64,000 nt of DNA from Spirochaetia bacterium. Its GTDB lineage: Bacteria > Spirochaetota > Spirochaetia > SZUA-6 > Fen-1364. Both the position numbers and the translations under genes were made by a program. The number at the start of each line of letters is the position of its first letter. Position 1 is the first letter of the stretch. Below, piece after piece: positions 3,174 to 62,340 of the stretch. The notes under the pieces are model-generated. The model worked only from the letters and a program-made list of their open reading frames with translations. It did not search any database and had not been told where the DNA came from. Location of the stretch: NCBI GenBank assembly GCA_049519415.1, contig JBEKQU010000007.1:24061-88060 (forward strand), in the 5' to 3' direction.

Positions 3174-3179
3174 CGGCGG

Positions 3180-11817: not shown

Positions 11818-11834
11818 CGTCCGGCTCGCGGTCT

Positions 11835-12674: not shown

Positions 12675-12683
12675 CGTGTCCTC

Positions 12684-15199: not shown

Positions 15200-15246
15200 G
15201 GAGTTTAGGACTGACCGTGGCGGTTGTCAATTGTTAACAAATCCTG
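15200..15246 (-). promoter_or_regulatory. Putative sigma70 promoter, TTGACA-17-TAAACT on the minus strand, with an adjacent palindromic TTGTTAACAA element (minus-strand read TTGTTAACAATTGACAAC)
   Basis: Read directly. Located upstream of the minus-strand ABC operon. A near-identical 19-mer recurs at 39611-39629. Confidence 0.4.
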
Positions 15247-15305
15247 ACTCAATAGAATTGTCCCCTGCACGCAGCCTGTGGGCCACGAAGGGCCATTGGC
15301 GTCGA

Positions 15306-20897: not shown

Positions 20898-20900
20898 TTT

Positions 20901-31627: not shown

Positions 31628-31641
31628 ATCGGGGGTAATCA

Positions 31642-33764: not shown

Positions 33765-33775
33765 AGGAGAAGATC

Positions 33776-35825: not shown

Positions 35826-36638
35826 TCAGATTCCCGGCACGTATCCCTTGCCGTACCGGGCAGGCTCCTGGTCGCGGAAACCGCTGTTGAGGGAAAACCA
35901 CGCGGTTGTGCCGCCGTCGACGACGATGGTCTGACCGACGATGTACCGGGCAGCATCCGACGCAAGGAAAACAGCGACCTTTCCGATATCAGAGGGCTGT
36001 CCTTCGAAGCCCGCCGGTATCAACTTTCCCACCGCCTTCGCATCGAGATTGGCGATGAGCTTGTGATGGTTCTCCACCTCCGTGGGTCCAGGAGCAATGC
36101 CGTTGACCCGGATGCCCCGGGGCGCCAGCTCGATGGCGAGCGCCCTGGTGAAGGAAACCATGGCCCCCCGGGTCCCCGCGTACACCGTATGCTCGAGCCT
36201 GCCCCCGAAGGCGTGAATGGAGGAGATGTTGATGATGGCCGCGCCTTTGGCTGCCAGAAGCGCCGGCAGCAGCTCCTGGGTGAGAAAAAAAGGCGCTCTG
36301 ACGTTCACCGCGTAGAGTATCTCGAACTGTTCCGGCGTCACCGTCTCCAGGAGCCTGTTCATCGTGATGCCCGCGCTGTTCACCAGGACATCGATACCTC
36401 CGAGAAATGCCAGGGCCTCTTTCGCCAGCCCTCGCACATCCTCCAGGCGGGTGAAGTCTGCGCTGAATGCGGCTGCGTTTCCGCCGCTGGCGAGGATTTC
36501 ATCCACCGCCTTTTTCGCGCCCTCACCGCTATGGGAGTAGTGCAACGCAACCAAGGCCCCCGCCTTGGCGAACTCGAGCGCTATTCCCTTGCCGATGCCG
36601 GTGCCGGATCCCGTGACGAGAACGCGTTTCCCTTTCAT
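35826..36638 (-). CDS. SDR-family oxidoreductase (KduD / 2-deoxy-D-gluconate 3-dehydrogenase-like)
   Basis: VLVTGSGTGIGKGIA Rossmann motif. 270 aa. Confidence 0.8.
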   Translation of the reverse strand: MKGKRVLVTGSGTGIGKGIALEFAKAGALVALHYSHSGEGAKKAVDEILASGGNAAAFSADFTRLEDVRGLAKEALAFLGGIDVLVNSAGITMNRLLETVTPEQFEILYAVNVRAPFFLTQELLPALLAAKGAAIINISSIHAFGGRLEHTVYAGTRGAMVSFTRALAIELAPRGIRVNGIAPGPTEVENHHKLIANLDAKAVGKLIPAGFEGQPSDIGKVAVFLASDAARYIVGQTIVVDGGTTAWFSLNSGFRDQEPARYGKGYVPGI

Positions 36639-36645: not shown

Positions 36646-37683
36646 CTACCTTTGAACCCTTCCGGACGCGTCCCCGCCCATCAAGGCCTCGACTTCCCTG
36701 ACCGAAACCAGGTTGAAGTCGCCAACGATCGAGTGCTTGAGGCAGGAGGCTGCGGCCGCAAAGTCCACGCAGTGCTGCCCGTCAAACCCGGACAGCAAGC
36801 CATAGATGAGGCCGCCGGTGAACGAGTCGCCGCCGCCGACCCTGTCAACGACCGGATTCAGCTCGTATTTCCGGCTGAGGTAGTGCGCAGCGCCATCGTA
36901 GAGCAGCCCGGCCCAGCCGTTCACGGAGGCGGATACGCTCTCGCGCAGGGTGGTGGCGACGTGGGCGAAATGAAAACGCCGCGCAAGCTGCTCAGCCACC
37001 TGTTTGTACGACTCTCCCGCCAGCCTGCCGTGTGCCGCGTCGCTTCCCTCCGGCTTGATTCCGAAGACCTTTTCAGAGTCTTCCTCATTGCCGACGAGCA
37101 CGTCGACATACCGCATCAACCGCGACATGACACGGTTGGCCTCCTGAGGGCTCCAGAGCTTTGCGCGGTAATTCAGGTCGCAGCTTACGGTGAGCCCATG
37201 CTTTTTTGCCGCCGAAAGCCCGTCTTCCAGGACGCGCTGCACGTTCTCGCCGAGCGCCGGCGCGGTGCCGGAAAAGTGGAACCAATCCTTTCCCGAGCAG
37301 ATGGTCTCCCAGTCGTAGTCCTCCGGCTTCGACTCGCGAATCGCGCTGTGCGAGCGGTCGTAAATGATCTTCGAGGCTCGCTGCGCGGCGCCGGTCTCCA
37401 GGTAGAACAGGCCCAGCCTTTCGCCGCCCCGCGCAATGAAGTCCGTGTTCACCCGGAAACGGCTGAGGTAGTTGATGCATGCCTGGCCGATCTCGTTGTC
37501 CGGCACCTTTGAGACGGCATAGGCTTCCATCCCGAAGTTCACGAGCGACACGGCGGCGTTGGCTTCCGCGCCCGTATAGCGCGCCTCAAAATCGTCAGCC
37601 TGCACGAAACGCCCGACGCCCCGGGGGGCAAGTCTCAGGAGCAGCTCTCCGAAGGCGACGATTTTTTTCTTCTTCCCTTCCAT
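36646..37683 (-). CDS. kdgK: 2-dehydro-3-deoxygluconokinase (PfkB family), copy 1
   Basis: MEGKKKKIVAFGELLLRL N-terminus and C-terminal DRVGGGDSFTGG anion-hole motif. ATG at 37681-37683 overlaps the eda stop. The ORF track's 115-aa upstream extension is read-through. Confidence 0.85.
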   Translation of the reverse strand: MEGKKKKIVAFGELLLRLAPRGVGRFVQADDFEARYTGAEANAAVSLVNFGMEAYAVSKVPDNEIGQACINYLSRFRVNTDFIARGGERLGLFYLETGAAQRASKIIYDRSHSAIRESKPEDYDWETICSGKDWFHFSGTAPALGENVQRVLEDGLSAAKKHGLTVSCDLNYRAKLWSPQEANRVMSRLMRYVDVLVGNEEDSEKVFGIKPEGSDAAHGRLAGESYKQVAEQLARRFHFAHVATTLRESVSASVNGWAGLLYDGAAHYLSRKYELNPVVDRVGGGDSFTGGLIYGLLSGFDGQHCVDFAAAASCLKHSIVGDFNLVSVREVEALMGGDASGRVQR

Positions 37684-38339
37684 CACTGGCCCCTGCGCGC
37701 GTCGGCCACGATTTTGATGAAGTTTCGGGCGTTCTCCGTCATGACGTTGAACTGACGGTTCTTGAGCGCGGCGGGATCGACAAGCGCCTTCCCGACGCCC
37801 ACGGCCACCGCCCCGGCTTTTATGTACTCGGGGGCGGTCTTTGTATCGACGTTGCCCGTCACCAGCATCCGGATGTGCGGCAGCGGCCCCTTGAGGTCCT
37901 GAAAATAGCCCGGCGTGCCGAGCCGTCCCGGGAAGATCTTCACGACGTCGGCTCCCGCTTTCCACGCGGTGACGATCTCTGTGGGAGTGACGCACCCCGG
38001 CATGACCGCGGTGTCGTAGAGCTTGCACATGTCCACCATGTCGCGATCGAAGCAGGGCCCGACAACGAAGCTCGCGCCCGCCAGGATGGCCATGCGCGCG
38101 GTTGTCGCGTCCAGCACGGTGCCCGCGCCGATGAAAACCTCGTCGCCGAGCTGCCTGCTCGCCGCGGCCACGATCTCAAGCGCGCCGGGCACGGTCATGG
38201 TGATCTCCACCAATCGGACGCCGCCCTTGCCCATGGCACGGGCAACCTCGAGGAGGTCCGTCGGGTCGTCGACGCGTATCACGGCCACGACCCCTGTTTC
38301 CGCAAGCGTCCGCAGGACTAGCTGTTTTGCTGATGCCAT
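37683..38339 (-). CDS. eda: KDPG / KHG aldolase
   Basis: 218 aa with a typical Eda fold and a catalytic-lysine region (GADVVKIFPG). Confidence 0.85.
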   Translation of the reverse strand: MASAKQLVLRTLAETGVVAVIRVDDPTDLLEVARAMGKGGVRLVEITMTVPGALEIVAAASRQLGDEVFIGAGTVLDATTARMAILAGASFVVGPCFDRDMVDMCKLYDTAVMPGCVTPTEIVTAWKAGADVVKIFPGRLGTPGYFQDLKGPLPHIRMLVTGNVDTKTAPEYIKAGAVAVGVGKALVDPAALKNRQFNVMTENARNFIKIVADARRGQ

Positions 38340-38370: not shown

Positions 38371-39534
38371 TCACACCGCCAATTTATCGGTCCGCCGACC
38401 CGGGGAGGGAATCTCCTCAAAAGTCAATTCAGTGCCCTTGTAAAGAAAATGGAGGGAGCCGTCAAGCCATTCAGAAACCACGATTTTCTGGATGGGTTCA
38501 CGAATGATCGCACACCCGCTCCGCGGGCGAAACCGCCTGTGATTGTGATCGACCACCAGGTCCGGTCCGACCCTATGCTCCTGCTGCGTGCAGAATATCG
38601 ATCGAAGGTCTGTGCCGTCGACGATCGGCACATGATAGTCGGCGGGGCATGGGGTGCACGTCGCGAAAAGCGCGTTCAGCTTGTCGTCGAGGGGGCCTTG
38701 CATCATCGCGTTGACTCCCTCGAAGGTTGCCGCCGATGAGCCTCGCAGCTCGCTCTCCAGGAACCCCATCAACGGCTTCAGATCGAGCAGCACGGTCCTT
38801 GCCTGGGGAGGATTCAGCGCTCCCACATCGATTCCCAGTCTTTCGCAGGAGCGCGCGAAAGGCGTGCGCTGTTCATCGCCCGCGAGCTGCTCTTCGAGCG
38901 TGGGATGACGGTTTTCGCAGAGCACGAACCTTCTCGCGCAGCGAAGCGCCGCGGGAATTCCATGCCGATCTATCCAGATCCAGAGGAGGCGCATCGCGGC
39001 CGCGCTGGATTCTTCCGGCGCGGCCAGCCACAGGCTTCTGGAGGTCGCCTCATCGCGTATGCACAGAAGGCAGGCCGTGGGAAGCTCCGCGATGATCGAA
39101 CCCGACCGGATGGCCACCAGTGTCAGAACCTCGCCGAAACCCCTCCCTGAGCGGTTTGCCCGCGGCGTCATTATCCTGTTCCTGCTCAGCTTCCATAAAT
39201 CGCTCTCGATGAGCCATCGACGGAGGGTCTCATGGTCTATTACGATGCCGCTCTTTTCGAGCTCTTCCGCGAATTGTGTCGGCCCGAGGCCTGGGGCGTG
39301 TTTCCGGTATTTTCCCAGTATCTCTTCCTTGAATACATCAGGGAAGGCTCTGTTCGATGGCTTGCCCCTGTTGCCGTGGGCGAGACCCTGTTCACCTTCC
39401 TCGCGGAAGCGCTTCCAGATTCTTTTGACCTGTCGGGAGGAGAGCGCCAGGATCCTGCTTGCCTGGTCAAGCGTCAATGTGCGGTTGCTCACCCTGTTGA
39501 GCACCATGCACCTTCTGTTCTCATTCTCTCTCAC
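38371..39534 (-). CDS. ISNCY (IS1202-group)-like transposase, possibly degenerate
   Basis: N-terminal HTH region ...RRCMVLNRVSNRTLTLDQASRILALSSRQVKRIW..HGNRGKPSNRAF... aligns with ISNCY transposase N-termini. The segment expected to carry the first DDE Asp reads LVAIRSGS / CIRDEAT, so acidic residues may be substituted. Start ambiguous: GTG 39534 or ATG 39507 (the ORF track starts at TTG 39618). Confidence 0.55.
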   Translation of the reverse strand: MRENENRRCMVLNRVSNRTLTLDQASRILALSSRQVKRIWKRFREEGEQGLAHGNRGKPSNRAFPDVFKEEILGKYRKHAPGLGPTQFAEELEKSGIVIDHETLRRWLIESDLWKLSRNRIMTPRANRSGRGFGEVLTLVAIRSGSIIAELPTACLLCIRDEATSRSLWLAAPEESSAAAMRLLWIWIDRHGIPAALRCARRFVLCENRHPTLEEQLAGDEQRTPFARSCERLGIDVGALNPPQARTVLLDLKPLMGFLESELRGSSAATFEGVNAMMQGPLDDKLNALFATCTPCPADYHVPIVDGTDLRSIFCTQQEHRVGPDLVVDHNHRRFRPRSGCAIIREPIQKIVVSEWLDGSLHFLYKGTELTFEEIPSPGRRTDKLAV

Positions 39535-39559
39535 GGTGAAACCCCCTTTTCGCTTTTGG

Positions 39560-39630
39560 AGATTCTTCCGCTGAAGCCGTACTGTTTGCAGGATATATTG
39601 GCAACAGTTAGTTGTCAACTGTTAACAAAA
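39560..39630 (-). promoter_or_regulatory. Putative promoter TTGACA-N16-TATATC with an adjacent TTGTTAACA element (minus-strand read TTGTTAACAGTTGACAAC). Second copy of the 15228 motif.
   Basis: Read directly. The AT-rich region 39630-39729 follows. This is either the displaced native promoter of the eda-kdgK operon or the IS-end promoter. Confidence 0.35.
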
Positions 39631-39729: not shown

Positions 39730-40773
39730 TCAGCGCTGGATTCTCCCCGATGCATCACCCCCCATCAAAGCAAGCACTTCATCGAATGTCACGAGGTTGA
39801 AATCCCCATGAATGGTGTGCTTCAGGCAGGAGGCCGCGGTGGCGAACTCGACGCTTTCCTGCAGGTCCTGGCCCGTGAGAAGTCCGTAGATAATGCCCGA
39901 TGAATAGGCATCCCCGCCGCCGATCCTGTCGACGATGTAGTCCATGTGGTACTTGCGGCTGGTGTAGAACCGTTTGCCGTCGTAAAGCATGCCTGACCAG
40001 TTGTTCGCGGTGGCGGACAGGCTCTCGCGCAGCGAGATGGAAACGTAGTCCAGGTGGAACCTCTCGTGGAGCTGGGCAGCCACGTCCTCATAGCCGCGCT
40101 CGCTGATCTTTCCCCCCTTGACGTCGCTTCCCCGCGCCGCTATCCCGAAGACCGTTTCCGCCTCTTCTTCATTGGTGAAAAGAATGTCAACGTATTCCAT
40201 CAAGCCGGACATGACCTCCCGGGCTTTCTCCGGGGACCAGAGCTTCCTGCGGAAATTCAGATCGCAGCTGATCGTCACGCCCTTCTTTTTCCCCGCGACG
40301 CACGCTTCCTTCGTGATGGCCGCGACGCTGTCCGCCAGTGCGGGAGTGATCCCCGTGAAGTGGAACCAGTGCTTGCCTTCGAAGACGGAGTTCCAGTCGA
40401 TGTCCCCGGAGCGCAGCTCCGTGATCGAGCTGCCCTTGCGGTTGTACAGGAACGTGGAGGGCCTCTGCGCCGCTCCGGTCTCCACGAAATAGATGCCCAG
40501 CCGATACCCGTTTTTCCTGACGTAGTCGAGGTTAAGCCCGAACTGGCGCACGTAGTTCAGGCAGGCCTGGCCGACCGCGTTGTCGGGGACGCTGGAGACC
40601 AGGAAGCTTTCGATCCCGAAAGCCTCCAGGGCGACACCGAGGTTCGCTTCGGCCCCGCTGTAGATGACATTGAACTCCCGCGCCTGCACGATGCGCTCGT
40701 GCTGCTTGGTCGACAGGCGCATCATGAGCTCGCCGAACAGAACGACCTTTTTATCCGATGCGATCTTCTTCAT
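39730..40773 (-). CDS. kdgK: 2-dehydro-3-deoxygluconokinase (PfkB family), copy 2
   Basis: 347 aa, collinear with copy 1 (DRIGGGDAYSSG, identical GDFNLV..EV.ALMGGDASGR.QR tail). Confidence 0.85.
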   Translation of the reverse strand: MKKIASDKKVVLFGELMMRLSTKQHERIVQAREFNVIYSGAEANLGVALEAFGIESFLVSSVPDNAVGQACLNYVRQFGLNLDYVRKNGYRLGIYFVETGAAQRPSTFLYNRKGSSITELRSGDIDWNSVFEGKHWFHFTGITPALADSVAAITKEACVAGKKKGVTISCDLNFRRKLWSPEKAREVMSGLMEYVDILFTNEEEAETVFGIAARGSDVKGGKISERGYEDVAAQLHERFHLDYVSISLRESLSATANNWSGMLYDGKRFYTSRKYHMDYIVDRIGGGDAYSSGIIYGLLTGQDLQESVEFATAASCLKHTIHGDFNLVTFDEVLALMGGDASGRIQR

Positions 40774-40782: not shown

Positions 40783-41673
40783 CTATTTTCCCAGAAGCTG
40801 CTCGATGGCCTGCTTCTGCTGCACACCAACCGGCTCCAGGGGCGACATCGCCCTGCCTGAACCGCTTCCTAGGAGGGAGGCGGCATACTTGATACCCGAA
40901 AGCCAATTGGTCCCGCCCGTCACCAGCGGAGCGCGCATCCGCATCATCTCATCATGAATGCGCGCCGCGCCGGCCCAGTCTTTGCGCTCCGCGGCCTCGA
41001 ATGCCTGGATGAAAATCGCGGGGATGATGTTTCCGCAGCCCGGCACGAGGCCGGCGGCTCCCGCCCGCAGCTCCTCCAGCATGGTCACCTCGTCGCCCCC
41101 GAGCACGGAAATTCCGACCTCGCCCCCGCGGCGCACCAAGTCACGGAAGTATGCCATGTCCCCAGAGCTTTCCTTGCAATGCCGAAGCCACCCGCGCCTG
41201 CCCATCTCGCAGAGCGTGTCGACCGCGATGCTCGTCCCGGTGCACTGGGGAATGTTGTACGCGATCATCTCCATGTTCCCGCCCGCCTCCCGCGCTTCTC
41301 CAAAGAGCCGCAGGTGTTCTGACTCCGCGCGGGCGGCAAGGTAGAAGGTCTGCGTAACGACGAAATGGGAATAGCCGATGGCGCGGAGCGCTTTGACCTT
41401 CTCCCGGACCCGGCGGCTCGACGTGTCCATGACGCCGCCCAGAAGCGGCATCCGCCCTTTCACCTCATCGAAGGCGATTTCCGTCATTCGCTGCCATTGG
41501 TCGGAGGGGAGGAGGGGGCCTTCCCCGGCGCTTCCGCCCACAAAGAGGCCGTGCACGCCGGCTTCAGCAAGACGGCGGATCAGCCGGCGCAGGCCGGCTT
41601 CATCGACTTTTTCCTCCGCATCCAGGGGCGTGATGATGGGAACTACTACGCCGCGTAAAGTGCTTGTCTGCAT
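40783..41673 (-). CDS. DHDPS/NAL-family class I aldolase (2-keto-3-deoxy sugar-acid aldolase or N-acetylneuraminate-lyase-like)
   Basis: 296 aa with a YNIP motif region (IAYNIPQCTG) and a Schiff-base Lys context (CKESSGD). Confidence 0.75.
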   Translation of the reverse strand: MQTSTLRGVVVPIITPLDAEEKVDEAGLRRLIRRLAEAGVHGLFVGGSAGEGPLLPSDQWQRMTEIAFDEVKGRMPLLGGVMDTSSRRVREKVKALRAIGYSHFVVTQTFYLAARAESEHLRLFGEAREAGGNMEMIAYNIPQCTGTSIAVDTLCEMGRRGWLRHCKESSGDMAYFRDLVRRGGEVGISVLGGDEVTMLEELRAGAAGLVPGCGNIIPAIFIQAFEAAERKDWAGAARIHDEMMRMRAPLVTGGTNWLSGIKYAASLLGSGSGRAMSPLEPVGVQQKQAIEQLLGK

Positions 41674-41700: not shown

Positions 41701-42846
41701 TCATAGTGCTAATGGGTAGCACCCTGCTCTGGCGACTTCATCGCACATGGCGACGATGTTCGCGGGCGGCACATCCGGCTGGATGCAGTGCACAGCGGCT
41801 GCCACGTAGCCGCCTCCGGGGGCAAGGTCGCGGATCCGGCGTCGGACCTCCCCGCGAACCTCCTCCGTCGTGCCGTACGGCATCACCCGCTGGGTATCGA
41901 TTGCGCCGCAGAAGGCGAGCCTTTTTCCGAACTCGCGCTTCAGACGCGCGGTGTCGGCCAGGTCCGGCGCGGACACTTGCACGGGGTTCAGCAGGTCCAC
42001 CCCGATATCCACCAGGTCGTCGATCAGGGCATAGACGTTGCCGCAGGAGTGGAAGAAGATCTTTGCCCTGGTGTTTTCCCTGATAGCGGCCAGCACCTCG
42101 GCCTGATGAGGCTTGATGAGCCGGCGATAGTCGGGCGGAGACATCAAGGTCGAGTCCTGCGTTCCCAGGTCGTCGCCCGTGATCACGACATCCACGTACG
42201 CGCCCGCCTGGCGAAAAAGCTCTCGAAGATAGGGAAGGGCGAGCTCCTTGATGCGGCCCAGCAATGCCAGAAAGAAATCCTGGTCGGCCGCAAGGTCCAT
42301 CAAGCACTCCGCCACTCCGCGCAGCATGTAGAGCTGCTCGAACAGGGTGGTGCCGGTCAGGAGCACGCTCGCGAAGCCGGCCTCCTGGATTGCCCGGCAG
42401 CGATCGGCAAGCCCGGCAAACCGTGACGCCGGCAGAAGGTCCGGCCACGGGTAGCGGTCCAGATCGTCCAGGGAGGCGTTTCGCAGCGGGGGATCGGTGA
42501 TCTCGAAGTACTGGGTGCCGGCGCGCTTCCGCCACGCGCAGCCCCAATCATCCACGATGCAGTCATCGGTGCTCCGCATGCCGTGGTGAGACAGAGCGGG
42601 GCCCGGCATGACGGGACGGCCGTCGGAGCCGAGCGTGCGCATGACCTCCTCATCCATCCATACGTACTGCAGGGGCTGGGAGAGCCAGCGGCATTCCCCG
42701 GCTTGAACGCCGAGATGCTCCTTGAGTTTCGGGTAGCCCGGGCCCAGCACGGTGGTGGCGCCGGATGTGCCGATGAACAGAGGCACCCGGTCAGGCTCCT
42801 CATGGTTCAAGGCCATCATGACGCGCTCCCTTGGGGACATGCTCAT
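41701..42846 (-). CDS. URO-D / MtaA-CmuA superfamily methyltransferase-like protein, paralog 5
   Basis: N-terminal MSMSPRERVMMALNHEEPDRVPLF and GDDLGTQDSTLMSP ... FFHSCGNVYALIDDLVDIGVDLLNPVQ. Confidence 0.8.
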   Translation of the reverse strand: MSMSPRERVMMALNHEEPDRVPLFIGTSGATTVLGPGYPKLKEHLGVQAGECRWLSQPLQYVWMDEEVMRTLGSDGRPVMPGPALSHHGMRSTDDCIVDDWGCAWRKRAGTQYFEITDPPLRNASLDDLDRYPWPDLLPASRFAGLADRCRAIQEAGFASVLLTGTTLFEQLYMLRGVAECLMDLAADQDFFLALLGRIKELALPYLRELFRQAGAYVDVVITGDDLGTQDSTLMSPPDYRRLIKPHQAEVLAAIRENTRAKIFFHSCGNVYALIDDLVDIGVDLLNPVQVSAPDLADTARLKREFGKRLAFCGAIDTQRVMPYGTTEEVRGEVRRRIRDLAPGGGYVAAAVHCIQPDVPPANIVAMCDEVARAGCYPLAL

Positions 42847-42876
42847 CCGTTCAGCCCTCCCCGCGACGCATCGGCA

Positions 42877-43992
42877 TCAGTAGGTCCCCCTCTGGAGGCC
42901 CTTTTCGACAAAGTGCCGATAGGTCTCGTACTTCACATTGCTGGACACGCTGTGGTCCACCTGCAGCACGTATCCGCTGCCTGCCATAGCGCCGGGAAGT
43001 TTTTTCTCCAGCTCGGCGTCGACCGCCGCGAGATCATTGGTTTCCAGCACCCGTTCGTCCATGCCGCCGATCAAAGCGATTCGCGCGCCGAAATCCCGCT
43101 TCAGTTTCAAAAGGTCCATGCCGGCCTTGGTCTCTATCGGCTGCAGGCAGTCGATCCCCGCCTCGATGAGGTGGGGAACGAGCGCTTCCACGAATCCATC
43201 GCAGTGCAGGACCACGGGCAGCTTCCTGCTGTGGGCGAAATCGAAAAGGCGCTTGTGCGCCGGAAACAGGATCTCCCGGTACATCAGCGGGGACATGAAG
43301 GGCGTGTTCTTGTATCCCAGGTCGTCCCACACCCACAGCCCGTCCGGCATCCCTTCGCGGGCAAAGAGAATTTCGAGGAGGCGGATGGTGATGTCGGCAT
43401 ACACGGCGGCCATCCGGCGCACCCACTCTCCGTCGGCAGCCATGCCCATGAGCAGGTATTCGTGGCCGCACATTGGCGACATCAGGTCGAAGGCGCCCAC
43501 CACGCCGCACGTCATGAACCGGCAATCGCGCGCGCATTTCGCGCGCAGCTGCCGGTAGCGATCGAAATCGATGCGCCGCTCGTAGGTCCGCTCGTCGAGC
43601 AGCCAGGGCTCGATGCTTTTTTCCCAACCCTCCCGATCCTTCACTGAAAAATCCACGTGCTCGGGCGCGCCGGAACCATTCTTCAGCCAGCGGAGAAGCG
43701 CTCCATTCCCATCACGCACCAGTTTCGCGCTGCTCGTCTCCTCTACGACGTCCTCAGCGGCGTCCACGTCGGCCACAAGGTTGATCGTTTTCCAGGACAT
43801 CGGGGTGATCTCGCCGCCGGTCCTCCTCACATCGAGCCCGAAATGATCGCTCACCATTTCCGGTTTTTCAAACCATCCCTGGTCGGCCCAGCCGCGGGCT
43901 GTTTCCTGCCAGAAAACCTCGAAAAGTCCCACGCGATCCACCGGCAGGTGGAGGAGGATCCGGGAAAAACGCTCCTTGCTCGTCAGCGGCAT
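42877..43992 (-). CDS. URO-D / MtaA-CmuA superfamily methyltransferase-like protein, paralog 6
   Basis: MPLTSKERFSRILLHLPVDRVGLF and WDDLGYKNTPFMSP ... VVLHCDGFVEALVPHLIEAGIDCLQPIE (H-C-D-G variant). Confidence 0.75.
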   Translation of the reverse strand: MPLTSKERFSRILLHLPVDRVGLFEVFWQETARGWADQGWFEKPEMVSDHFGLDVRRTGGEITPMSWKTINLVADVDAAEDVVEETSSAKLVRDGNGALLRWLKNGSGAPEHVDFSVKDREGWEKSIEPWLLDERTYERRIDFDRYRQLRAKCARDCRFMTCGVVGAFDLMSPMCGHEYLLMGMAADGEWVRRMAAVYADITIRLLEILFAREGMPDGLWVWDDLGYKNTPFMSPLMYREILFPAHKRLFDFAHSRKLPVVLHCDGFVEALVPHLIEAGIDCLQPIETKAGMDLLKLKRDFGARIALIGGMDERVLETNDLAAVDAELEKKLPGAMAGSGYVLQVDHSVSSNVKYETYRHFVEKGLQRGTY

Positions 43993-44001
43993 GCGATTCC
44001 C

Positions 44002-45165
44002 CTATGCCGCGTGGCAGGCTTCGAAGAGCGCGCGGAGGTTTTCCAGCGGGATCTCCGGAGTCATGATATTGGCGGGGGCAACGATGAGCGCGTTGCCGAA
44101 CGGAGCGCCGAGGGTTTCGATGGTCCGGCGGACCTCTTCCCGAATCTGTTCCGGCGTGTGGGTAGCCAGCCGCTGGTCGTCGATGCCGCCGAAGAAGGCC
44201 ACCTTCCCCCCGAACTGTCGGGCAACCTCTTTCTGGTCCATGGCTCCCGGCTGGATGGGGTCGAGCACGTCGACGCCCAGAGTGATCAGGTCGGGGACGA
44301 TCGCCATGACGTTTCCGCAGCTGTGAAACATCACGTCCATGCCGTGGCGATGGATTTCCTCGAATATCGTCCGGTAGTGTTCCGCGAAAAAGCTCCGCCA
44401 CATCTCCAGGGAAAGCATGAGAGAGGTCTGGGTGCCCCAATCATCGGTGAGATAGACGGAATCGGCTCCCATCTCCGCCCATCCGCGGATCACGTGCAGA
44501 AGAGAGCGTGCTATCGCATCGCCCAGTTTCCGAACCTCCCGCTCATTGGTGTAGAAATCCATGAGCAGGTTCTGCATTCCCCGCACCGCCTGCAGCCGCT
44601 CGAAGAGGGCCAGGTGAATGATCCCCCCACAGTATTTCGACTGACCGTGCGTCGTGAAAACAGGCCGTGCACCGTCAAGCCTGCCCGCTGCGCGGGGGTC
44701 GGGGATGCCATGCGCCAGATACTCGTCAAGCTGGGACCAATCCTTCAGGGGGTGATCCACGGGAGTCGCTCCGACCCCGCCGAACGCGTGGCCCCAGCGG
44801 GTGCCCCATTCATCAGCCCACTCGGCGGACTGCGTCAAAACTCGGAGGGGATCAATGCGGCCTCTGAGGTCGTGCGGCTGGTAGCCGATGCTGCTCTCGT
44901 AGGGCGCGGTCATGATCAGGTCGTCCGGATACTCGCAGAAAAGGTCTGCCAGCGCGTCTCCGTGACGGAGGACGATATCCAGGGACAGACGCTTTATGCG
45001 CACCGGGCAGCGCGGGGCGCCTTGTCTGCGGATGGCGCGGCGCACCATTTCCCTGGTCGGAGGGTACGAGAGCTGGGCATCGCTCACGCGCTTCTCGAAT
45101 CGGGCAACGATGTTCCCGACTTCCGAAAGGGGCAGCAGGCGAAAGTCCTCGCTTTCAGTCATCAC
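44002..45165 (-). CDS. URO-D / MtaA-CmuA superfamily methyltransferase-like protein, paralog 7
   Basis: TDDWGTQTSLMLSLEMWR ... VMFHSCGNVMAIVPDLITLGVDVLDPIQ. Close paralog of 9479..10687. Confidence 0.8.
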   Translation of the reverse strand: MMTESEDFRLLPLSEVGNIVARFEKRVSDAQLSYPPTREMVRRAIRRQGAPRCPVRIKRLSLDIVLRHGDALADLFCEYPDDLIMTAPYESSIGYQPHDLRGRIDPLRVLTQSAEWADEWGTRWGHAFGGVGATPVDHPLKDWSQLDEYLAHGIPDPRAAGRLDGARPVFTTHGQSKYCGGIIHLALFERLQAVRGMQNLLMDFYTNEREVRKLGDAIARSLLHVIRGWAEMGADSVYLTDDWGTQTSLMLSLEMWRSFFAEHYRTIFEEIHRHGMDVMFHSCGNVMAIVPDLITLGVDVLDPIQPGAMDQKEVARQFGGKVAFFGGIDDQRLATHTPEQIREEVRRTIETLGAPFGNALIVAPANIMTPEIPLENLRALFEACHAA

Positions 45166-45186: not shown

Positions 45187-45969
45187 TTACCAGACTGTAT
45201 AGCCGCCGTCGATGGTGAGCACGCCTCCGGTCATGAAGGAGGAGGCGTCCGATGCCAGAAAGATGATGGCGCCCTTCAGCTCATCCAGCCGCCCATAACG
45301 TCCCATTGGGGTGTTGCGGAGGTTTCGCTCGTAGACCTCGGGGATCCTGGCGCTCGCCGCCGTCTGGTCGGTCATGATGTAGCCGGGCGCAAGGGCGTTC
45401 ACGCGAACGCCGGCTCCCGCCCATTCCGCGGCCATGCCGCGCGTCAGGTGGGCCACTCCGGCCTTTGCGACGCAGTAGGTGACGTTGTGGCGCGGGGTGA
45501 TGTTGCTGATGACAAAGGAGTTGATGGAAGCGATGTTGATGATGCTCCCCCTGCCCGCCTCCCTCATGCGCGCGGCCACCCTTTTGCCCACGTAGAACAT
45601 GCTGGAAAGGTTTGTGTCGATGATTTTTCTCCAGAGGTCATCTCCCACCTCCTCCAGCGGGCACCCTTCCGAGGGCATGGCCGCATTGTTGACCAGAACG
45701 TCGATCCTGCCGTACCGGGCGATGACCTCCGCGATGAAGGAGTCGATCTCCCCCGAGACAGTGACGTCGACCCGTGAGAAGAGCGCTTCCCTGCCCAGAA
45801 GGGAGAGCTCCGCGCGCGTCCGCTCACCCTCCTCCTTCAAGAGGTCGCAGAAGGCAATCGCGGCTCCGGCTTCCGCCAGCGCGAGCGCATGCTGCCGTCC
45901 AAGCCCCCGCGCTCCACCGGTCACGATGGCGACGCGGTCCTTCAGGCTGAACAAGTCCAGGGCGTTCAT
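45187..45969 (-). CDS. SDR-family oxidoreductase
   Basis: RVAIVTGGARGLG Rossmann motif and Y-x-x-x-K (YCVAKAG). Start at MNALDLF (ATG 45967-45969). Confidence 0.8.
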   Translation of the reverse strand: MNALDLFSLKDRVAIVTGGARGLGRQHALALAEAGAAIAFCDLLKEEGERTRAELSLLGREALFSRVDVTVSGEIDSFIAEVIARYGRIDVLVNNAAMPSEGCPLEEVGDDLWRKIIDTNLSSMFYVGKRVAARMREAGRGSIINIASINSFVISNITPRHNVTYCVAKAGVAHLTRGMAAEWAGAGVRVNALAPGYIMTDQTAASARIPEVYERNLRNTPMGRYGRLDELKGAIIFLASDASSFMTGGVLTIDGGYTVW

Positions 45970-45970: not shown

Positions 45971-46651
45971 TCATTTCCCCGCCGAGGGCCAGGTGGTTTT
46001 CCCGAACGCACCCTCCCAATCCGTCATGAACCCCCGCATGCGCTTCTCCGTGTAAGGGTGTTCGAACAGCAAGGCCAGGTACTCGAACCGCAAGGTGCAG
46101 ATGTCGGTTCCCGCCACGGCGAACTGCCCGAATGATCTGGGGTAACGGCCGCAGGAAAGAATCTTTGTGGGGAAGCCGTAGTTATCGTAGATTTTCCGCA
46201 CCGGCGCCACAAGCTCCACTTCCTGGTCCAGGGCCTGGTCGAGCGGTCCGTTGAAGATGGCCACGATATCGGCTCCCGACTTTCCCGCGAGGTATGCCTG
46301 GGCAACCGAGGAAACGAGCGTCACCGCTATCCTGATGCCGCGGACTTCCTTCTTGAGCCGCAGCAGCGCCTGGATGCCCGCAATGCTCATGGGAAGCTTG
46401 ACGATGATCTTTTCTGAAAAACCGTGGAGCCACTGCGCCTGTGCGATGAGACTCTCCCTGTCTTCCCAGCCGATGGCTTGGCAGAGGACAGGCCCCGGCG
46501 ACGCATCGAGGACCTTCCCAAGAATCGCCGTGGGGTCGCGGCCGCCCCCTTTGGCGATCAGGGTCGGGTTTGTGGTGACTCCGTCCAGCACCCCCCATTC
46601 CGTTGCTTTTCCGATCTCCTGGGGGTCAGAGCTGTCGAGAAAAAGCTGCAT
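45971..46651 (-). CDS. Fructose-6-phosphate aldolase / transaldolase-family protein (FSA/TalC-like)
   Basis: MQLFLDSSDPQEI...GVTTNPTLIA N-terminus and C-terminal DWEGAFG, matching FSA. 226 aa. Confidence 0.75.
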   Translation of the reverse strand: MQLFLDSSDPQEIGKATEWGVLDGVTTNPTLIAKGGGRDPTAILGKVLDASPGPVLCQAIGWEDRESLIAQAQWLHGFSEKIIVKLPMSIAGIQALLRLKKEVRGIRIAVTLVSSVAQAYLAGKSGADIVAIFNGPLDQALDQEVELVAPVRKIYDNYGFPTKILSCGRYPRSFGQFAVAGTDICTLRFEYLALLFEHPYTEKRMRGFMTDWEGAFGKTTWPSAGK

Positions 46652-46666: not shown

Positions 46667-48391
46667 TCATGCAAACAGGTCTTCGGCAAGCTCACACAGG
46701 TGAGATTCTACGCGTGTGTGGTACTCGCGGTAAAACCCCTCGGCCAGGGTATAGAACATCTCCCTGTTGATGAATCGGCCCGACGCGTCGCGCCGACCGG
46801 GGAATGCGAAGAAGTACTGGCGGAAAACCTCGTGCGACGGCGAGGGGGACGGTTTTTCCAAGGATGCATATTCGGAAAGGCACTGGGCGGCAAGCGGTGA
46901 GCCGTTTTCCGCCTCGACCCGCGCATAGTCGAACGCGTCCGTCCACCAGCGAAGGAAGATATCGGGATAATAATCCCGGACCGCCTCCGCGAAGATGAAG
47001 TGCAGATGGGGAGAGATCTTATAATGCAGTTTTCCTTTTGTTGCGCGGCGTATGGCGCGGCGCGCGCCTCTGGAAAGGTCATCAGCGGAGTGGATGTCCA
47101 GCAGGGAGCCCGTTTCCTCGGCGATGTGGTACAGGGACTCCACCCGCGCCTGCAGCCCGGGGAATCCGTCCGCCAGCCTGTAGTCGAATCCTTTTTCAAC
47201 GCCGAAGTTCGGGGCGATATGCGTGACGGGCAGCCCGCGGCGGGCCAGCTCTCTGGCAACGAAGACCACTTCCTCTTCCTCGCTGATGCAGCTGGGGCCC
47301 GGGATCTCCGGAGGATGTTCGTCGAAGGAGAACTCCAGGTCGAAGGGGATTCCCTCACGCAGGGCTGAGATGCGCTGGACCAGCGCCGAAACAGATTCCA
47401 GGGAGCGCCAGTACTTTCCAACGCAACGGCCCACGATATCGCTGTCGAGCAGGTACCGGCGTGCTCCAATCTGGACCGGCTCCCGATGATACAAGAGGAT
47501 GTCGCGGCGTTCCTTTTCACCCGTTACCGTCTGGCCGAGGATCAGCTCCCCCTCGCCCCTGCGTCCCATTGATGAAAAAGAGAGAACGTCGGCAACGTCC
47601 ATGGTGAAGAAGGTGTAATAGCGGGCTGCCTCGACTACGCGCGCGGCATTCTGGAGACCGGTATCCGCGCGCTTCACCTGGATGTGGTCTGCGTCCGCTC
47701 CGTAGACAAGGGGCTTCCCGTGCCGGAGGGCCGCCAGCACTCCGGCAACCCATAGCCCTTCGAAGGTGCTTCCCGTGTAGCCGCTTTCAATCATGCCAAA
47801 GCCGCTGGCATAGTTGCGCACGGGTTCCCTGCCGCTTTTCAGGTCTTCGAGAAGATTGAGCTCGCGGACGGAGTTCTGAATGGCGTTTGCGGGAAACCCT
47901 GCGCGGTCCATTGCCGCGAATATTCCCGGCCATACCCGGGTGGTCAGACGCGTGCCGATCCCGAGCCGTGGAACCCGGCCGAGCGCTCGCGGTGCGTTTT
48001 TCGGTTTTAACAGGCGACAGAACCTGTCGATGATTCCGGCGTCCGTCGGATATGACGCAAGCATCCTGCCGCCTTCCAGCGAGGTCTTGAAGAACGGTTC
48101 ACCCAGCAACGACTCACTGTCAGGGTTCCCCGTCTGAATAAAGACCATCTGCCCGTCTTTCAACTCGGCGAGGAAATATGCCTGTGCCCCGCGTTTGACG
48201 ATCGAGCTCACCGCGGGTCCGCGATCCTCATGAATCCCGGGAGTGGTCCCGGAAAACGCGCTGTCGTGCGCCAAGGACCAGTCCTTCTGGCCCTCGATAA
48301 TGGCCCGGCGGGCTGCTCCCACGTCCCATGTCGCCGTGTCGAGCACGGCAGGGCTTATGGCGGGATTAATGTCGAGCTTCCCGAAAACCAT
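46667..48391 (-). CDS. Putative tagaturonate/fructuronate epimerase (UxaE-like). Tentative call.
   Basis: Segments LPVTHIAPNFGVEKG and IHSADDLS...LHYKISPHLHFIFAEA resemble the UxaE pattern (APNF... / FHSGSDK...HVKTAG..). GGAGGAG RBS precedes the ATG at 48391. The first 22 aa of the ORF track are read-through. Confidence 0.4.
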   Translation of the reverse strand: MVFGKLDINPAISPAVLDTATWDVGAARRAIIEGQKDWSLAHDSAFSGTTPGIHEDRGPAVSSIVKRGAQAYFLAELKDGQMVFIQTGNPDSESLLGEPFFKTSLEGGRMLASYPTDAGIIDRFCRLLKPKNAPRALGRVPRLGIGTRLTTRVWPGIFAAMDRAGFPANAIQNSVRELNLLEDLKSGREPVRNYASGFGMIESGYTGSTFEGLWVAGVLAALRHGKPLVYGADADHIQVKRADTGLQNAARVVEAARYYTFFTMDVADVLSFSSMGRRGEGELILGQTVTGEKERRDILLYHREPVQIGARRYLLDSDIVGRCVGKYWRSLESVSALVQRISALREGIPFDLEFSFDEHPPEIPGPSCISEEEEVVFVARELARRGLPVTHIAPNFGVEKGFDYRLADGFPGLQARVESLYHIAEETGSLLDIHSADDLSRGARRAIRRATKGKLHYKISPHLHFIFAEAVRDYYPDIFLRWWTDAFDYARVEAENGSPLAAQCLSEYASLEKPSPSPSHEVFRQYFFAFPGRRDASGRFINREMFYTLAEGFYREYHTRVESHLCELAEDLFA

Positions 48392-48452: not shown

Positions 48453-48480
48453 AACACTCTTTAGAAATGTCCCTGTGGCC
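48453..48480. repeat. 26-nt motif, copy B: ACACTCTTTAGAAATGTCCCTGTGGCCCGG. Overlaps the TAA stop of the GH63-like gene and sits 69 nt upstream of the UxaE-like start.
   Basis: Compare 28718..28745. On the minus strand it is followed 37 nt later by TTCGTAGG and then the RBS. Confidence 0.5.
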
Positions 48481-50452
48481 CGGCTGCGCGAGGCCCTGGG
48501 GCTCTCCTGCCCGCGCTTTCAGGGCCGTGCTCTGTATCCTCCATGTACCCCGCCTCCATGAGGGAGATCAGTCCCAAAAGGCCGCTCCACGTGTAGAGCT
48601 TTTCGCTCTCCGTCTTGTCATCGCAGCCGATGCCCAGCTCCGCATTGTAGTTCTCATGCACGTGTCGCTTCTCGCGCCACTCTTTCAGAAGAAGATTTTT
48701 CGATTTCTCCGCCAGGTCCTGCTGTGCCTTCTTCATCCCGTACCTTCTCAGTCCGAGGTAGGTATGGAAATTCATCGGCGCCCAGATCCTGCCCCGCCAG
48801 TAGTACTGATCCTTGTAACCGGGATCATTTCGCGGGGAGCTGGGGAGGATCCATTCACCCCAGAATTCCTCTGGATTGTAAAAATGGTCGTTCACCATTC
48901 GCTCGGCCTGTTTTTTTGTTGCCACGCCGGCGAGCATCGGGTAAAAGTTCGAAGGCGAGATTCGATAGCTTGCCTTGCCCGTGTCGGTGTGCCGATTGAG
49001 GAAGATGCCGGTCTTTTCATCCCAGAGCGTCCTGAGGCTTTTCGCGCAAGATTCAGAACGAGCGCGGAGCTCAGCCGCCTCGGCTCCCTTTCCCAGGACA
49101 AGGGCGATCTCCGTCAGCGCATCACAATCCGCGATATAGAGGCTGGTATGGCCGACATCGGCCAGCTCCATCATGCCCTTTTCCTTGTTGAAGACAACGT
49201 CGTCCCACATGGTCGAATTGTCAATGCCCGATTCGCGGTCCGCGGAGAACTTGTCATTCACGCCGTTCAACTCGAAGTAATGGTCGTACACGACCTGAAT
49301 TGGGTTCGAACCCCACGCCAGGAGACCCTCCGCGATCATGCGTTTTTTCGCGCGCCATCGGTTCCAGTCCAGCAGGTCGGCGAACACTTCCTCCAGGAGC
49401 CATGCATCGCCGAATCGGTGGTAGAAATCCCGGATCATTGTCGAGCCCAGGGGGGGCGCCGACATGTACATTGTGCAGAAACCTATCCCTGTCGCCGCAA
49501 AGGGGACGAAACCCTCCGTGGTCTTTTCCTTGATCATCCCGATGATGTTGGCATAGGCCAGGTCCTTGTTGTCGAGTGACGCAAGGTAGGCATGGTAGAA
49601 GAGATCCTGCGCAGCGAGGTAGCCGCCGAAGTTCCGGTCAATGTCCCACGTTCTATTGATCGTGGTCAGCACCCGGTCTTTTTTCGGCTCGTAGAGCGTG
49701 GCCCAGGCAAGGCAGCTCTGCATTGCGTCATACACTTCGCGCAGGTCGCCGTATTTGTCCTTGCGGTCATTATGCTCCTGCTTTTTGCGGGCAATGACGG
49801 ATGTGATCTCCTGCACGCTCATTTTCCTGCCTGTCGATATCCCGATTTCTTCATCCAATCTCAGGGAGGCGTACGGCGTCTGGCATGCGACATAGGGGTC
49901 AGGCGTCCAGGCCTTGGTGGTGAACACCTTTACTTCTCGTTGGGGAAGCCTGGCCGTTATGACCTCCCCCTCGGCCGCAATGCTCCCCGCGCGATTCCAG
50001 AGGATTCCGCTCTCGATGACCAGGGTTGCGGGATACCTTTGGTTTCTGATCGGAGTGACCAGCACGACAAGCTCGTCCTTCACGGTGGCGGTTTGGACGT
50101 TGATTTCCATGGCGCGCCAGCAGAGCTTCAGTTCCGTGAAGCTTCCATCATACGCGTGAGCCAGCGGCGTTACCTCTTCGACGAGCTCTCCACCGCGATA
50201 CAATAGATTGGGATCGACAGGAGGCTGGTACCGCCCGATCAGGGTTTCCTTCAGGTATCTGCCGGCCGTATATTCTTTCAGGCAGATATTGAGCGCGAAA
50301 CCTTCAGGCATGAGCACGTGGGACAACACGCTTCGCACATTCCAGGTGTTCCAGCCTTTTGCCAGCCCTTCGAGCATGTCCCTGTATTCTTCCATAACGA
50401 GCATTCTCCCGCCAGAAACTGCAGTTTCCCTCAATGACAAGATGGATTTCAA
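48461..50452 (-). CDS. Glycoside hydrolase family 63-like six-hairpin enzyme (processing alpha-glucosidase / mannosylglycerate-hydrolase-like)
   Basis: 663 aa. The C-terminal (alpha/alpha)6 region carries YYWRGRIWAPMNFHTYLGL, resembling the GH63/GH37 W-R-G-P-I-W signature. N-terminal beta-domain. Lower GC than neighbouring genes. Confidence 0.5.
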   Translation of the reverse strand: MKSILSLRETAVSGGRMLVMEEYRDMLEGLAKGWNTWNVRSVLSHVLMPEGFALNICLKEYTAGRYLKETLIGRYQPPVDPNLLYRGGELVEEVTPLAHAYDGSFTELKLCWRAMEINVQTATVKDELVVLVTPIRNQRYPATLVIESGILWNRAGSIAAEGEVITARLPQREVKVFTTKAWTPDPYVACQTPYASLRLDEEIGISTGRKMSVQEITSVIARKKQEHNDRKDKYGDLREVYDAMQSCLAWATLYEPKKDRVLTTINRTWDIDRNFGGYLAAQDLFYHAYLASLDNKDLAYANIIGMIKEKTTEGFVPFAATGIGFCTMYMSAPPLGSTMIRDFYHRFGDAWLLEEVFADLLDWNRWRAKKRMIAEGLLAWGSNPIQVVYDHYFELNGVNDKFSADRESGIDNSTMWDDVVFNKEKGMMELADVGHTSLYIADCDALTEIALVLGKGAEAAELRARSESCAKSLRTLWDEKTGIFLNRHTDTGKASYRISPSNFYPMLAGVATKKQAERMVNDHFYNPEEFWGEWILPSSPRNDPGYKDQYYWRGRIWAPMNFHTYLGLRRYGMKKAQQDLAEKSKNLLLKEWREKRHVHENYNAELGIGCDDKTESEKLYTWSGLLGLISLMEAGYMEDTEHGPESAGRRAPGPRAAGPQGHF

Positions 50453-51199: not shown

Positions 51200-52926
<1,727 letters not shown>

Positions 52927-52930
<4 letters not shown>

Positions 52931-53841: not shown

Positions 53842-53842
53842 G

Positions 53843-57272: not shown

Positions 57273-57273
57273 C

Positions 57274-62235: not shown

Positions 62236-62262
62236 CAAGGATTTTCATAAAGCAAATCCTTG
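62236..62262. promoter_or_regulatory. Perfect 9-bp inverted repeat CAAGGATTT-N9-AAATCCTTG in the divergent intergenic region. Downstream TTGACA-N18-ATGAAT is a candidate promoter for URO-D paralog 8.
   Basis: Read directly from the sequence. Confidence 0.35.
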
Positions 62263-62340
62263 GAGCCATGCCCCGGTTGCCGCCTGCCGGCAGTGTTGAC
62301 ACAATCGCTGACACGTGACATGAATCCCCGGGAGAGAAGT

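Follow-up and report, generated by a model that had tools for sequence, protein, structure and literature searches.

The 64-kb window analysed here, 64,000 nucleotides of contig JBEKQU010000007.1 from a Spirochaetia bacterium, holds three adjacent genes, U5, U6 and U7, whose products belong to the URO-D/MtaA superfamily (Table 1). The first-pass annotation had described them as co-oriented, mutually divergent minus-strand paralogues with the motifs HSCG, HCDG and HSCG, and this description holds. The three open reading frames (ORFs) are complete, lie on the same strand (-) with 9 and 30 nucleotides between them, and each has a Shine-Dalgarno-like sequence upstream of its start. The motifs are found at residue 266 of U5, 263 of U6 and 281 of U7, and pairwise identity is 26% for U5/U6, 33% for U5/U7 and 26% for U6/U7. 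An alternative ATG at 45162 would give U7 386 residues, in which form it is 100% identical to a protein named 'MAG: Spirochaetia bacterium'. All three proteins score above the gathering threshold of the Pfam family PF01208 (URO-D), with matches that cover only the C-terminal two thirds of the profile, beginning at profile positions 101, 141 and 159.

We searched for relatives at E<=1e-5 in a 90%-clustered collection and obtained 1098-4624 per query. The best 120 of the 4624 relatives of U5 are 59-100% identical to it and, where source names are attached, come from Verrucomicrobiota, Lentisphaerae, Pirellulaceae, Thermoguttaceae and Phycisphaerae; the U5 family is 57-99% identical across the Planctomycetes-Verrucomicrobia-Chlamydiae (PVC) phyla. 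For U6 the best 120 matches (73-93% identical) derive from Spirochaetia, Thermoguttaceae, Anaerolineae, Caldilineales, Kiritimatiellia and others, orthologues at 73-78% identity occur in Spirochaetota, Planctomycetota, Chloroflexota, Verrucomicrobiota and other phyla, and an exhaustive search returned 6808 representative clusters at E<=1e-3. The best 120 matches of U7 are 58-100% identical.

Median identity is 66%, 77% and 60% inside the U5, U6 and U7 families, against 26-32% between them, which rules out a recent duplication, as the first-pass annotation had argued. Pseudogenes, its other refuting case, are likewise ruled out: each protein is full length relative to its orthologues and keeps every family-invariant residue (80, 145 and 63 positions, counted with the window protein as the reference row of its own family alignment). 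When the U5 and U6 family profiles are compared, only residues from about 150 to the end align. The N-terminal third is, at the profile level, family-specific, which fits different ligands or partners. By the conservation of their sequences, U5, U6 and U7 are ancient, intact and functional paralogues, one for each of three separate, uncharacterised and widely conserved subfamilies.

Four more clear URO-D genes bring the number in the window to seven, far beyond chance since a single copy of hemE is expected in most genomes. An eighth, highly divergent paralogue may be present in the 363-codon ORF at 8391-9482 (+), which overlaps paralogue 1 by 4 nucleotides. It has no Pfam match, aligns with the U7 family at an hhalign probability of 36% (E 4e-4), and reads 'FHLHG' at the position of the family's 'FHSCG'. 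Genes for acetate kinase and phosphotransacetylase are followed directly by paralogues 2 and 3 (18868-23113, -), and further along the same strand encodes an HMGL-like lyase, an aldehyde dehydrogenase, a metallo-beta-lactamase (MBL)-fold hydrolase and a GntR/FCD regulator; the region looks like a second URO-D-containing catabolic module.

Predicted fold and putative metal site

AlphaFold2 models of U5 and U6 (pLDDT 90 and 78) were compared with solved structures by Foldseek. The best match of the U5 model in the PDB is MtaA (4ay7; E 1e-15, TM score 0.64-0.71), followed by UroD and then MetE, and the best matches of the U6 model are UroD and MtaA. Both models resemble MtaA and UroD at TM 0.6-0.7 and 11-18% identity, with MetE further off, and the scores of 0.6-0.7 extend to many UroD structures, as expected of the URO-D TIM barrel that the models predict. 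Each also has an extra beta-rich N-terminal insertion, and in this region a D(D/E)WG motif is conserved in U5, U7 and paralogue 1. Searches by sequence yield no solved relatives other than MtaA (4ay7) and a few UroDs, and even family profiles reach these only at E 1e-3 to 2e-7, the lower value being that of a family profile against MtaA. Overall, MtaA and UroD are the nearest solved structures, at 14-18% identity.

The zinc site of MtaA is formed by His-x-Cys and a distal Cys. HMMER alignments pair 'fHsCGnv' of U5 and U7 with 'lHiCGNV' of MtaA, and align MtaA 'aPGCG' and UroD 'GHG' with H353/C354 in U5, H347 in U6 (through 'DHS') and N366 in U7. The putative ligands are H266-S-C268 with H353/C354 in U5, a variant set of H263-C-D265 with D346-H347 in U6, and H281-S-C283 with N366 at the third ligand position in U7; all are invariant within their families, giving a three-residue putative site that is conserved but variable. 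The seven paralogues have in common a DDxG, then H-x-(C/D), then H, N or D, a pattern suggestive of a metal site that was kept while its ligands varied.

All three subfamilies fail every curated NCBIfam cut-off, and their sub-threshold matches all rank MtaA/CmuA/MtbA above HemE. The MtaA/CmuA-type models TIGR01463, NF040654 and NF004889 give 34-61 bits against cut-offs of 235-400. The hemE equivalog TIGR01464 (cut-off 303 bits) gives 24.4 bits for U5 and 33.7 for U7, and has no match to U6 at E<=1e-3. HemE binds its substrate through an N-terminal PxWxMRQAGR motif, and RQ.GR is absent from all seven paralogues in the window. We therefore reject identity with HemE on the equivalog score and the missing motif. 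The label URO-D-like, given to the trio in the first pass, stands at the level of the superfamily and falls at the level of the enzyme, and by these scores and motifs the database name 'uroporphyrinogen decarboxylase' is wrong for the three subfamilies. PF01208 is the only domain that Pfam detects in them, with no homology to the enolase-superfamily, IlvD/EDD, UxuA or UxaA dehydratases.

The sugar-acid neighbourhood

The trio lies within a co-oriented minus-strand run that reads GH63-like glycoside hydrolase, UxaE-like protein, FSA, short-chain dehydrogenase/reductase (SDR), U7, U6, U5, dihydrodipicolinate synthase (DHDPS)-like aldolase and 2-keto-3-deoxygluconate (KDG) kinase, with 1-30 nucleotides between genes from UxaE through the PfkB kinase. 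Pfam matches of the flanking genes agree with the first reading of this run, which had named UxaE-like, FSA, SDR and DapA-like genes and a second kdgK. Terminator-like sites are not enriched between 39 and 51.2 kb (8 found, 9.9 expected from shuffled sequence).

Table 1. Genes of the trio, its paralogues and its neighbours, in window positions
Feature	Position	Strand	Evidence or remark
URO-D paralogue 1	9479-10687	+	53% identical to U7
URO-D paralogue 2	18868-19920	-	HSCG; adjoins AckA and Pta
URO-D paralogue 3	19929-20897	-	HCCG; adjoins AckA and Pta
Ldh_2	27480-28577	-	Pfam
SDR	28801-29619	+	Pfam
E1alpha	29653-30657	+	Pfam
E1beta	30554-31627	+	Pfam
E2	31642-32910	+	Pfam
Fumarylacetoacetate (FAA) hydrolase family	32979-33755	+	tblastn; best NCBIfam match 2,4-didehydro-3-deoxy-L-rhamnonate hydrolase, below cut-off
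2-Hydroxyacid dehydrogenase	~33773-34741	+	Pfam
Zinc alcohol dehydrogenase (Zn-ADH)	34738-35808	-	Pfam, NCBIfam
SDR	35826-36638	-	Pfam, NCBIfam
KDG kinase copy 1	36646-37683	-	Pfam, NCBIfam
Eda	37683-38339	-	Pfam, NCBIfam
Helix-turn-helix (HTH) protein	38371-39618	-	HTH_32, HTH_28, HTH_29, LZ_Tnp_IS481
KDG/2-keto-3-deoxygalactonate (KDGal) kinase-like PfkB, copy 2	39730-40773	-	PF00294; NCBIfam KDG/KDGal kinase-type matches
DHDPS/NanA-family pyruvate aldolase-like	40783-41673	-	PF00701 E 1e-37; recurrent beside U5/U6 orthologues
U5, URO-D/MtaA superfamily, 381 aa	41701-42846	-	PF01208 E 3.7e-26
U6, URO-D/MtaA superfamily, 371 aa	42877-43992	-	PF01208 E 2e-18
U7, URO-D/MtaA superfamily, 387 aa	44002-45165	-	PF01208 E 3.7e-27
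SDR, gluconate 5-dehydrogenase/KduD-like	45187-45969	-	adh_short_C2 E 3e-60; best NCBIfam match below cut-off
FSA/TalC-like class I aldolase	45971-46651	-	PF00923 E 2e-26; TIGR00875 150 bits, cut-off 246
Distant UxaE-like (tagaturonate/fructuronate epimerase family)	46667-48391	-	PF16257 E 2e-14, partial; no NCBIfam match
GH63/MGH1-like glycoside hydrolase, first in run	48461-50452	-	PF22422 E 9e-39; Trehalase and GH63 C-terminal matches
URO-D paralogue 7	62260-63405	+	HNDG

For comparison with other genomes, we scanned species-representative genomes and collected 51 loci (each +/-10 kb) around U6 orthologues, all in metagenome-assembled genomes, from Spirochaetota, Planctomycetota, Verrucomicrobiota, Chloroflexota, Lentisphaerae, Latescibacterota, Gemmatimonadota and one alphaproteobacterium. 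The genome loci were picked by two exact peptide patterns, which biases the sample to close U6 orthologues. Neighbours were identified by BLAST of the window proteins against six-frame ORFs of the loci, followed by clustering and Pfam; in high-GC loci these gene calls include some spurious ORFs and miss some genes.

The synteny comparison that the first-pass annotation had proposed shows that the three genes recur in sugar-acid clusters across phyla. U5 is adjacent to U6 in 19 of 47 U6-orthologue loci, spread over several phyla, and shares the locus in 26; a U7 orthologue shares it in 5, and all three occur together in 2 of the 47, as well as in L001, L007 and L062. U7 stands in place of U5 in the same cluster in L035, L048 and L071. 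The FAA hydrolase is among the most frequent neighbours of U6 orthologues (22 of 51 loci), and others that recur are SDRs, Ldh_2, 2-hydroxyacid dehydrogenase, E1/E2, Eda, the DHDPS-like aldolase, an MBL-fold hydrolase, DUF6786 and GntR/FCD regulators. A GH36/melibiase-like hydrolase recurs as well and stands no more than six genes from U6 in 10 of 45 loci. KDG/KDGal kinase orthologues in the same clusters are 75-84% identical, and the UxaE-FSA-SDR trio is syntenic in L001, L008, L041, L062 and L141. Further carbohydrate genes around the orthologues encode GH141 and sugar ABC, major facilitator superfamily (MFS) and RhaT transporters. Pfam-annotated contigs that encode homologues agree with this picture, and the window itself holds nearly the whole recurrent set, scattered over 27-50 kb. 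U5, U6 and U7 are thus fixed parts of a horizontally shared sugar-acid catabolic supercluster, the end steps of which are recognisable as a 2-keto-3-deoxy-acid kinase and aldolases.

In P0466 (686 residues), a protein from the representative search, two URO-D-like domains with an HSDG motif apiece are naturally fused in tandem, which suggests that pairs of such paralogues act as a pseudo-dimer. Together with the adjacency of U6 and U5, this fusion makes parallel isozymes less likely than a heteromer or complementary functions within one pathway, and suggests that U6 and U5 work as a pair. A second apparent fusion, of a U7-like protein with KDPG aldolase (P0356), was dropped as Rosetta-stone evidence: its linker resembles intergenic read-through and it comes from a single Logan contig, so that it is counted as adjacency only.

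Three features of the cluster in the window deserve comment. The FAA hydrolase gene is hidden beneath the 5' extension of a longer ORF (33434-34741), the 2-hydroxyacid dehydrogenase probably having its true start near 33773. The plus-strand genes at 29653-32910 form a complete E1alpha/E1beta/E2 set of a 2-oxoacid or acetoin-type dehydrogenase inside the sugar cluster, and the set is kept beside U6/U7 orthologues in other phyla, where E1 is a single fused protein in L048 and E2 is joined to E3 in L142. The HTH protein (415 residues) is related to the N-termini of IS481 transposases: its matches are confined to residues 35-136, all to N-terminal HTH/leucine-zipper models, and neither a DDE/rve nor another catalytic domain was detected in it. 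Its homologues occupy the same place between kinase and aldolase genes in L001 and L141, and in L012 and L046 they are located inside the cluster. Rather than being a mobile element, the protein may have been domesticated as a regulator of the cluster.

Corrinoid genes and the possible function of the trio

A motif scan for corrinoid proteins (GDxHDIGKN, PF02310, PF02607), combined with BLAST, covered 141 loci plus the window (1.62 Mb) and found seven corrinoid proteins, each 0-2 genes from a URO-D-like gene. Four of the seven adjoin U5, U6 or U7 orthologues. L043 reads U6, U5, corrinoid protein, methylenetetrahydrofolate reductase (MTHFR), pterin-binding methyltransferase and formate-tetrahydrofolate ligase (FTHFS). 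In L086, a DUF1638-MtaB-corrinoid protein block is divergent from U7, an MFS transporter and a BNR protein. L098 contains two cytochrome P450s, Amidohydro_2, a URO-D gene, the corrinoid protein, another URO-D gene, a U7-like gene and a GMC oxidoreductase, and L104 has Zn-ADH, the corrinoid protein, a U7-like gene and a URO-D gene, with TAL/FSA, SDR and transketolase genes on the other strand. The corrinoid-adjacent genes are true members of the families, keeping 57-63 of the 63 U7 invariants (60 in the L086 orthologue) and 78 of the 80 U5 invariants; the truncated U6 gene of L043 keeps 114 of about 129 invariants that it covers. One-carbon (C1) and corrinoid modules thus stand beside genuine orthologues in four loci. 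Among 82 genes that flank 26 U7 orthologues on metagenome contigs, Pfam identified B12-binding together with B12-binding_2 in three loci and P450s in two. C-terminal extensions of two homologues, P0505 and P0428, had been candidates for hidden B12 domains; they are in fact Pro/Lys-rich low-complexity tails.

The methanol block of L086 (481-3281, -; bog metagenome contig) consists of a bacterial MtaB (E 3e-158), the corrinoid protein and DUF1638, and adjoins a TonB-type outer-membrane protein in addition to the MFS transporter and the BNR/sialidase-like protein. It looks like a methanol methyltransferase system in a glycan-utilisation context.

From these observations we tentatively favour, as a plausible reading still short of an even chance, a role of U5, U6 and U7 in a corrinoid-linked demethylation of methylated sugars or sugar acids. 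Co-transcribed within a sugar-acid catabolic operon, the three proteins would be metal-dependent methyl-transfer components that keep the chemistry of their nearest relatives. They would take the O-methyl groups off methylated sugars or sugar acids that the neighbouring glycosidases set free, and the acceptor would be a corrinoid protein whose gene lies elsewhere in the genome. A separate hub, of the kind suggested by the layout of L043, would encode that protein together with a second methyltransferase and an activase. The demethylated carbon skeleton would pass through the neighbouring dehydrogenases to a 2-keto-3-deoxy acid, which would either be phosphorylated by KDG kinase and then split by Eda, or be a direct substrate of the DHDPS-like aldolase. 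MtaB activates methanol with zinc, and by analogy it is chemically conceivable that an alkyl methyl ether is cleaved with a metal-bound alkoxide as the leaving group. The seven or eight paralogues of the 64-kb window also resemble the sets of substrate-specific methyltransferases found in corrinoid systems. The proposal is drawn from synteny and motif evidence. In a more specific and rather unlikely form, the genes would constitute an oxygen-independent corrinoid system for sugar (alkyl) methyl ethers, with the U6-U5 pair as a metal-activated, sugar-specific methyltransferase I, U7 as an MtaA-like second methyltransferase, and a shared corrinoid protein at a separate C1 hub.

Several results weigh against corrinoid-linked demethylation. 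Pfam, the motif scan and BLAST found no corrinoid protein, pterin methyltransferase, MTHFR or MtaB in the 64-kb window, and no activase family is among its Pfam matches, although no search was aimed at activases. Only 4 of about 73 loci with U5, U6 or U7 orthologues have a corrinoid protein within +/-10 kb, the other 69 having none, and among 116 otherwise unlabelled U6 neighbours no B12 family is found in the 25 most frequent families. L142, L059 and L141 are compact, apparently self-contained clusters in which a corrinoid protein is absent. The ligands of U6 (His/Asp/His) and U7 (Asn as the third) are unlike the thiolate-rich zinc sites of MtaA and MetE, and identity of the three proteins to MtaA is only 15-18%. 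To our knowledge, corrinoid-dependent O-demethylases act on aryl methyl ethers, not on the alkyl ethers of sugars, and the literature that we searched contained nothing linking corrinoids to methylated sugars. The P450s beside U7 orthologues, as in the GH2-P450-U7 arrangement of L079, have generic CYP107/109-like proteins as their best PDB matches, with no sugar-demethylase entry among the 60 best; we therefore downgraded P450 adjacency, as evidence of sugar demethylation, to a weak hint.

The sparsity of corrinoid proteins fits the best-placed alternative, possible but on the whole doubtful, that U5, U6 and U7 are stand-alone metal-dependent sugar-acid enzymes that need no corrinoid and supply steps that the conserved oxidative pathway lacks. 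Candidate activities are those of a dehydratase of aldonates, an isomerase of uronates or of the aldose-ketose type, a lactonase, and a lyase by which methanol or water is eliminated beta to a carboxylate. The neighbourhood reads as an oxidative sugar route (SDRs, MBL-fold, FAA hydrolase, DHDPS-like, kinases, Eda, Ldh_2, 2-hydroxyacid dehydrogenase) in which known dehydratases are scarce, with MR_MLE relatives in 3 of 51 loci and no ILVD/EDD, UxuA or UxaA among the frequent families. In L142, which comprises GH36/NPCBM, SDR, RhaT, DUF6786, SDR, 2-Hacid_dh, Ldh_2, PfkB, Eda, U7, E1alpha, E1beta and E2-E3, the U7 orthologue is the sole unassigned enzyme besides DUF6786. His/Asp/His and His/Cys/His sites resemble catalytic Lewis-acid sites, and the many invariant Arg, Trp, Asp and Glu residues of U6 would suit an anionic sugar. 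This argument from a missing step, however, assumes a pathway that is itself only inferred, and it leaves unexplained the corrinoid proteins, MtaB, MTHFR, pterin methyltransferase and FTHFS beside orthologues in four loci. We also know of no member of the UroD/MtaA/MetE superfamily that catalyses dehydration or isomerisation of sugars. A hybrid is possible and more speculative: methanol could be eliminated from a methoxy sugar acid and then captured by MtaB and its corrinoid protein, as in L086.

The first-pass annotation had read the divergence of the three genes as a sign of distinct substrate specificities. On such a reading they would be parallel isozymes of one reaction, each serving a different sugar independently. 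The divergence stands, and the N-terminal third that cannot be aligned between families, the differing ligand sets, the frequent occurrence of U7 orthologues in loci that lack U5 or U6, and the replacement of U5 by U7 in three loci all fit that view; the step from divergence to specificity goes beyond the evidence. We consider isozymes unlikely, since the frequency with which U6 and U5 are adjacent or co-located is typical of subunits or of consecutive steps, favouring complementary roles, and since a tandem two-domain fusion exists and UroD is itself a homodimer. The reading of the genes as genuine HemE enzymes of tetrapyrrole biosynthesis, to which the PF01208 score and the names in public databases would lead, is virtually untenable in view of the equivalog scores, the absent RQ.GR motif, the partial Pfam coverage, 11-17% identity to solved UroDs, the absence of haem-synthesis genes among the neighbours and the presence of seven copies in sugar operons.

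Judged by profile scores and gene context, the superfamily is a known one, while the subfamilies and their strongly conserved metabolic setting are new; we rate the subfamilies as new because all curated cut-offs failed and because identity lies below the threshold for MtaA-like proteins. Thousands of database proteins are automatically named 'uroporphyrinogen decarboxylase', a name that misleads for these three subfamilies. The hosts of the supercluster are abundant uncultured Planctomycetota, Verrucomicrobiota, Chloroflexota, Spirochaetota, Lentisphaerota and Latescibacterota, and the recognised record names of its carriers point to peat, lake and sediment sites. If U5, U6 and U7 do act as corrinoid-linked sugar demethylases, they would offer a testable answer to how methylated sugars are degraded where O2 is lacking, and would tie polysaccharide breakdown to C1/folate metabolism and cobamide demand. 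The oxygen-independent system, if real, would do in anaerobes what the P450 sugar demethylases do with O2, and would carry corrinoid O-demethylation beyond aromatic ethers to carbohydrates. It would account for the use of 4-O-methyl-glucuronate, 2-O-methyl-fucose, 3-O-methyl-galactose or -rhamnose and similar sugars by anaerobes of peat, sediment and gut. Should the proteins instead be stand-alone lyases or dehydratases, they would represent a new reaction class for the UroD/MetE fold. On either reading, candidate genes, partner genes and trial substrates are now defined.

Elsewhere in the window, four ORFs with coding-like codon bias have no Pfam match (4737-7097, +; 7621-8247, -; 15231-16028, +; 63413-64000, +). 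The first, of 786 codons, sits between a sugar ABC transporter and the region of paralogue 1, and a PDB sequence search with it and with the ORF at 8391-9482 gave no matches. GC content, about 0.61-0.63 elsewhere, falls to 0.51-0.56 at 10001-14000, where it coincides with an ABC sugar-transporter operon (11835-15034, -); the dip may mark a recent acquisition. The region between the operon and paralogue 7 (51200-61026) encodes a complete histidine-utilisation set (urocanase, formiminotransferase, imidazolonepropionase-like amidohydrolase, cyclodeaminase and histidine ammonia-lyase) and a GlnE-like adenylyltransferase of 1250 residues, and appears unrelated to U5, U6 and U7.

Relation to known systems

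The UroD superfamily includes UroD, MetE, epoxyalkane:coenzyme M transferase, and corrinoid O-, S- and halide-methyltransferases and demethylases (PMC10418091). Within it, the methylcobamide:coenzyme M methyltransferases MtaA, MtbA and MtsA (4ay7) are the best structural and profile match to U5, U6 and U7. They share the TIM-barrel fold, and MtaA has H-x-C at the same place, while His, Cys or Asn occupies the position of its distal Cys in the trio. Corrinoid proteins adjoin orthologues of the trio in four loci, one of them with MtaB and one with a methyl-tetrahydrofolate module. Unlike MtaA, U5 and U7 carry the beta-rich N-terminal insertion with D(D/E)WG, Asp or Asn replaces Cys, an adjacent corrinoid protein is usually absent, and the genes lie in sugar-acid operons of non-methanogenic, mostly uncultured bacteria. 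At 15-18% identity to MtaA, the trio also falls below the 25% identity by which 'Mlp' proteins are defined (PMC10418091). The phenyl methyl ether O-demethylases OdmB and VdmB belong to the wider corrinoid methyltransferases of the superfamily; the logic of their operons (methyltransferase I, corrinoid protein, methyltransferase II) is seen in L043, with its URO-D genes, corrinoid protein and pterin methyltransferase. HemE/UROD (EC 4.1.1.37) has the same Pfam family and fold (TM ~0.65-0.7); U5, U6 and U7 differ from it in lacking RQAGR, in possessing a putative metal site that HemE lacks, in being multicopy and in their unrelated genomic context.

The neighbouring genes have their counterparts in the L-rhamnose/L-fucose diketo-hydrolase, De Ley-Doudoroff and UxaE-type hexuronate routes, which use the same families (SDR, lactonase-like MBL, FAA hydrolase, DHDPS-like, KDG/KDGal kinase, KDPG aldolase and UxaE-like). 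In contrast to those routes, the neighbours all score below curated equivalog cut-offs, and the canonical dehydratases are absent from the operon and rare in related clusters. Our literature search did not tie URO-D-like proteins to carbohydrate catabolism or to any described version of a sugar-acid pathway, and we know of no such version that includes them.

Removal of methyl groups from sugars is documented only for O2-dependent enzymes, the cytochrome P450s with which marine Bacteroidota demethylate 6-O-methyl-D-galactose (PMC6292453, PMC9400963). If corrinoid-linked demethylation is the true function of U5, U6 and U7, the two systems would perform the same task, taking a methyl ether off a sugar in the context of polysaccharide utilisation, with normal catabolism to follow. 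The P450s would do so, however, as members of an unrelated protein family that depends on O2 and releases formaldehyde.

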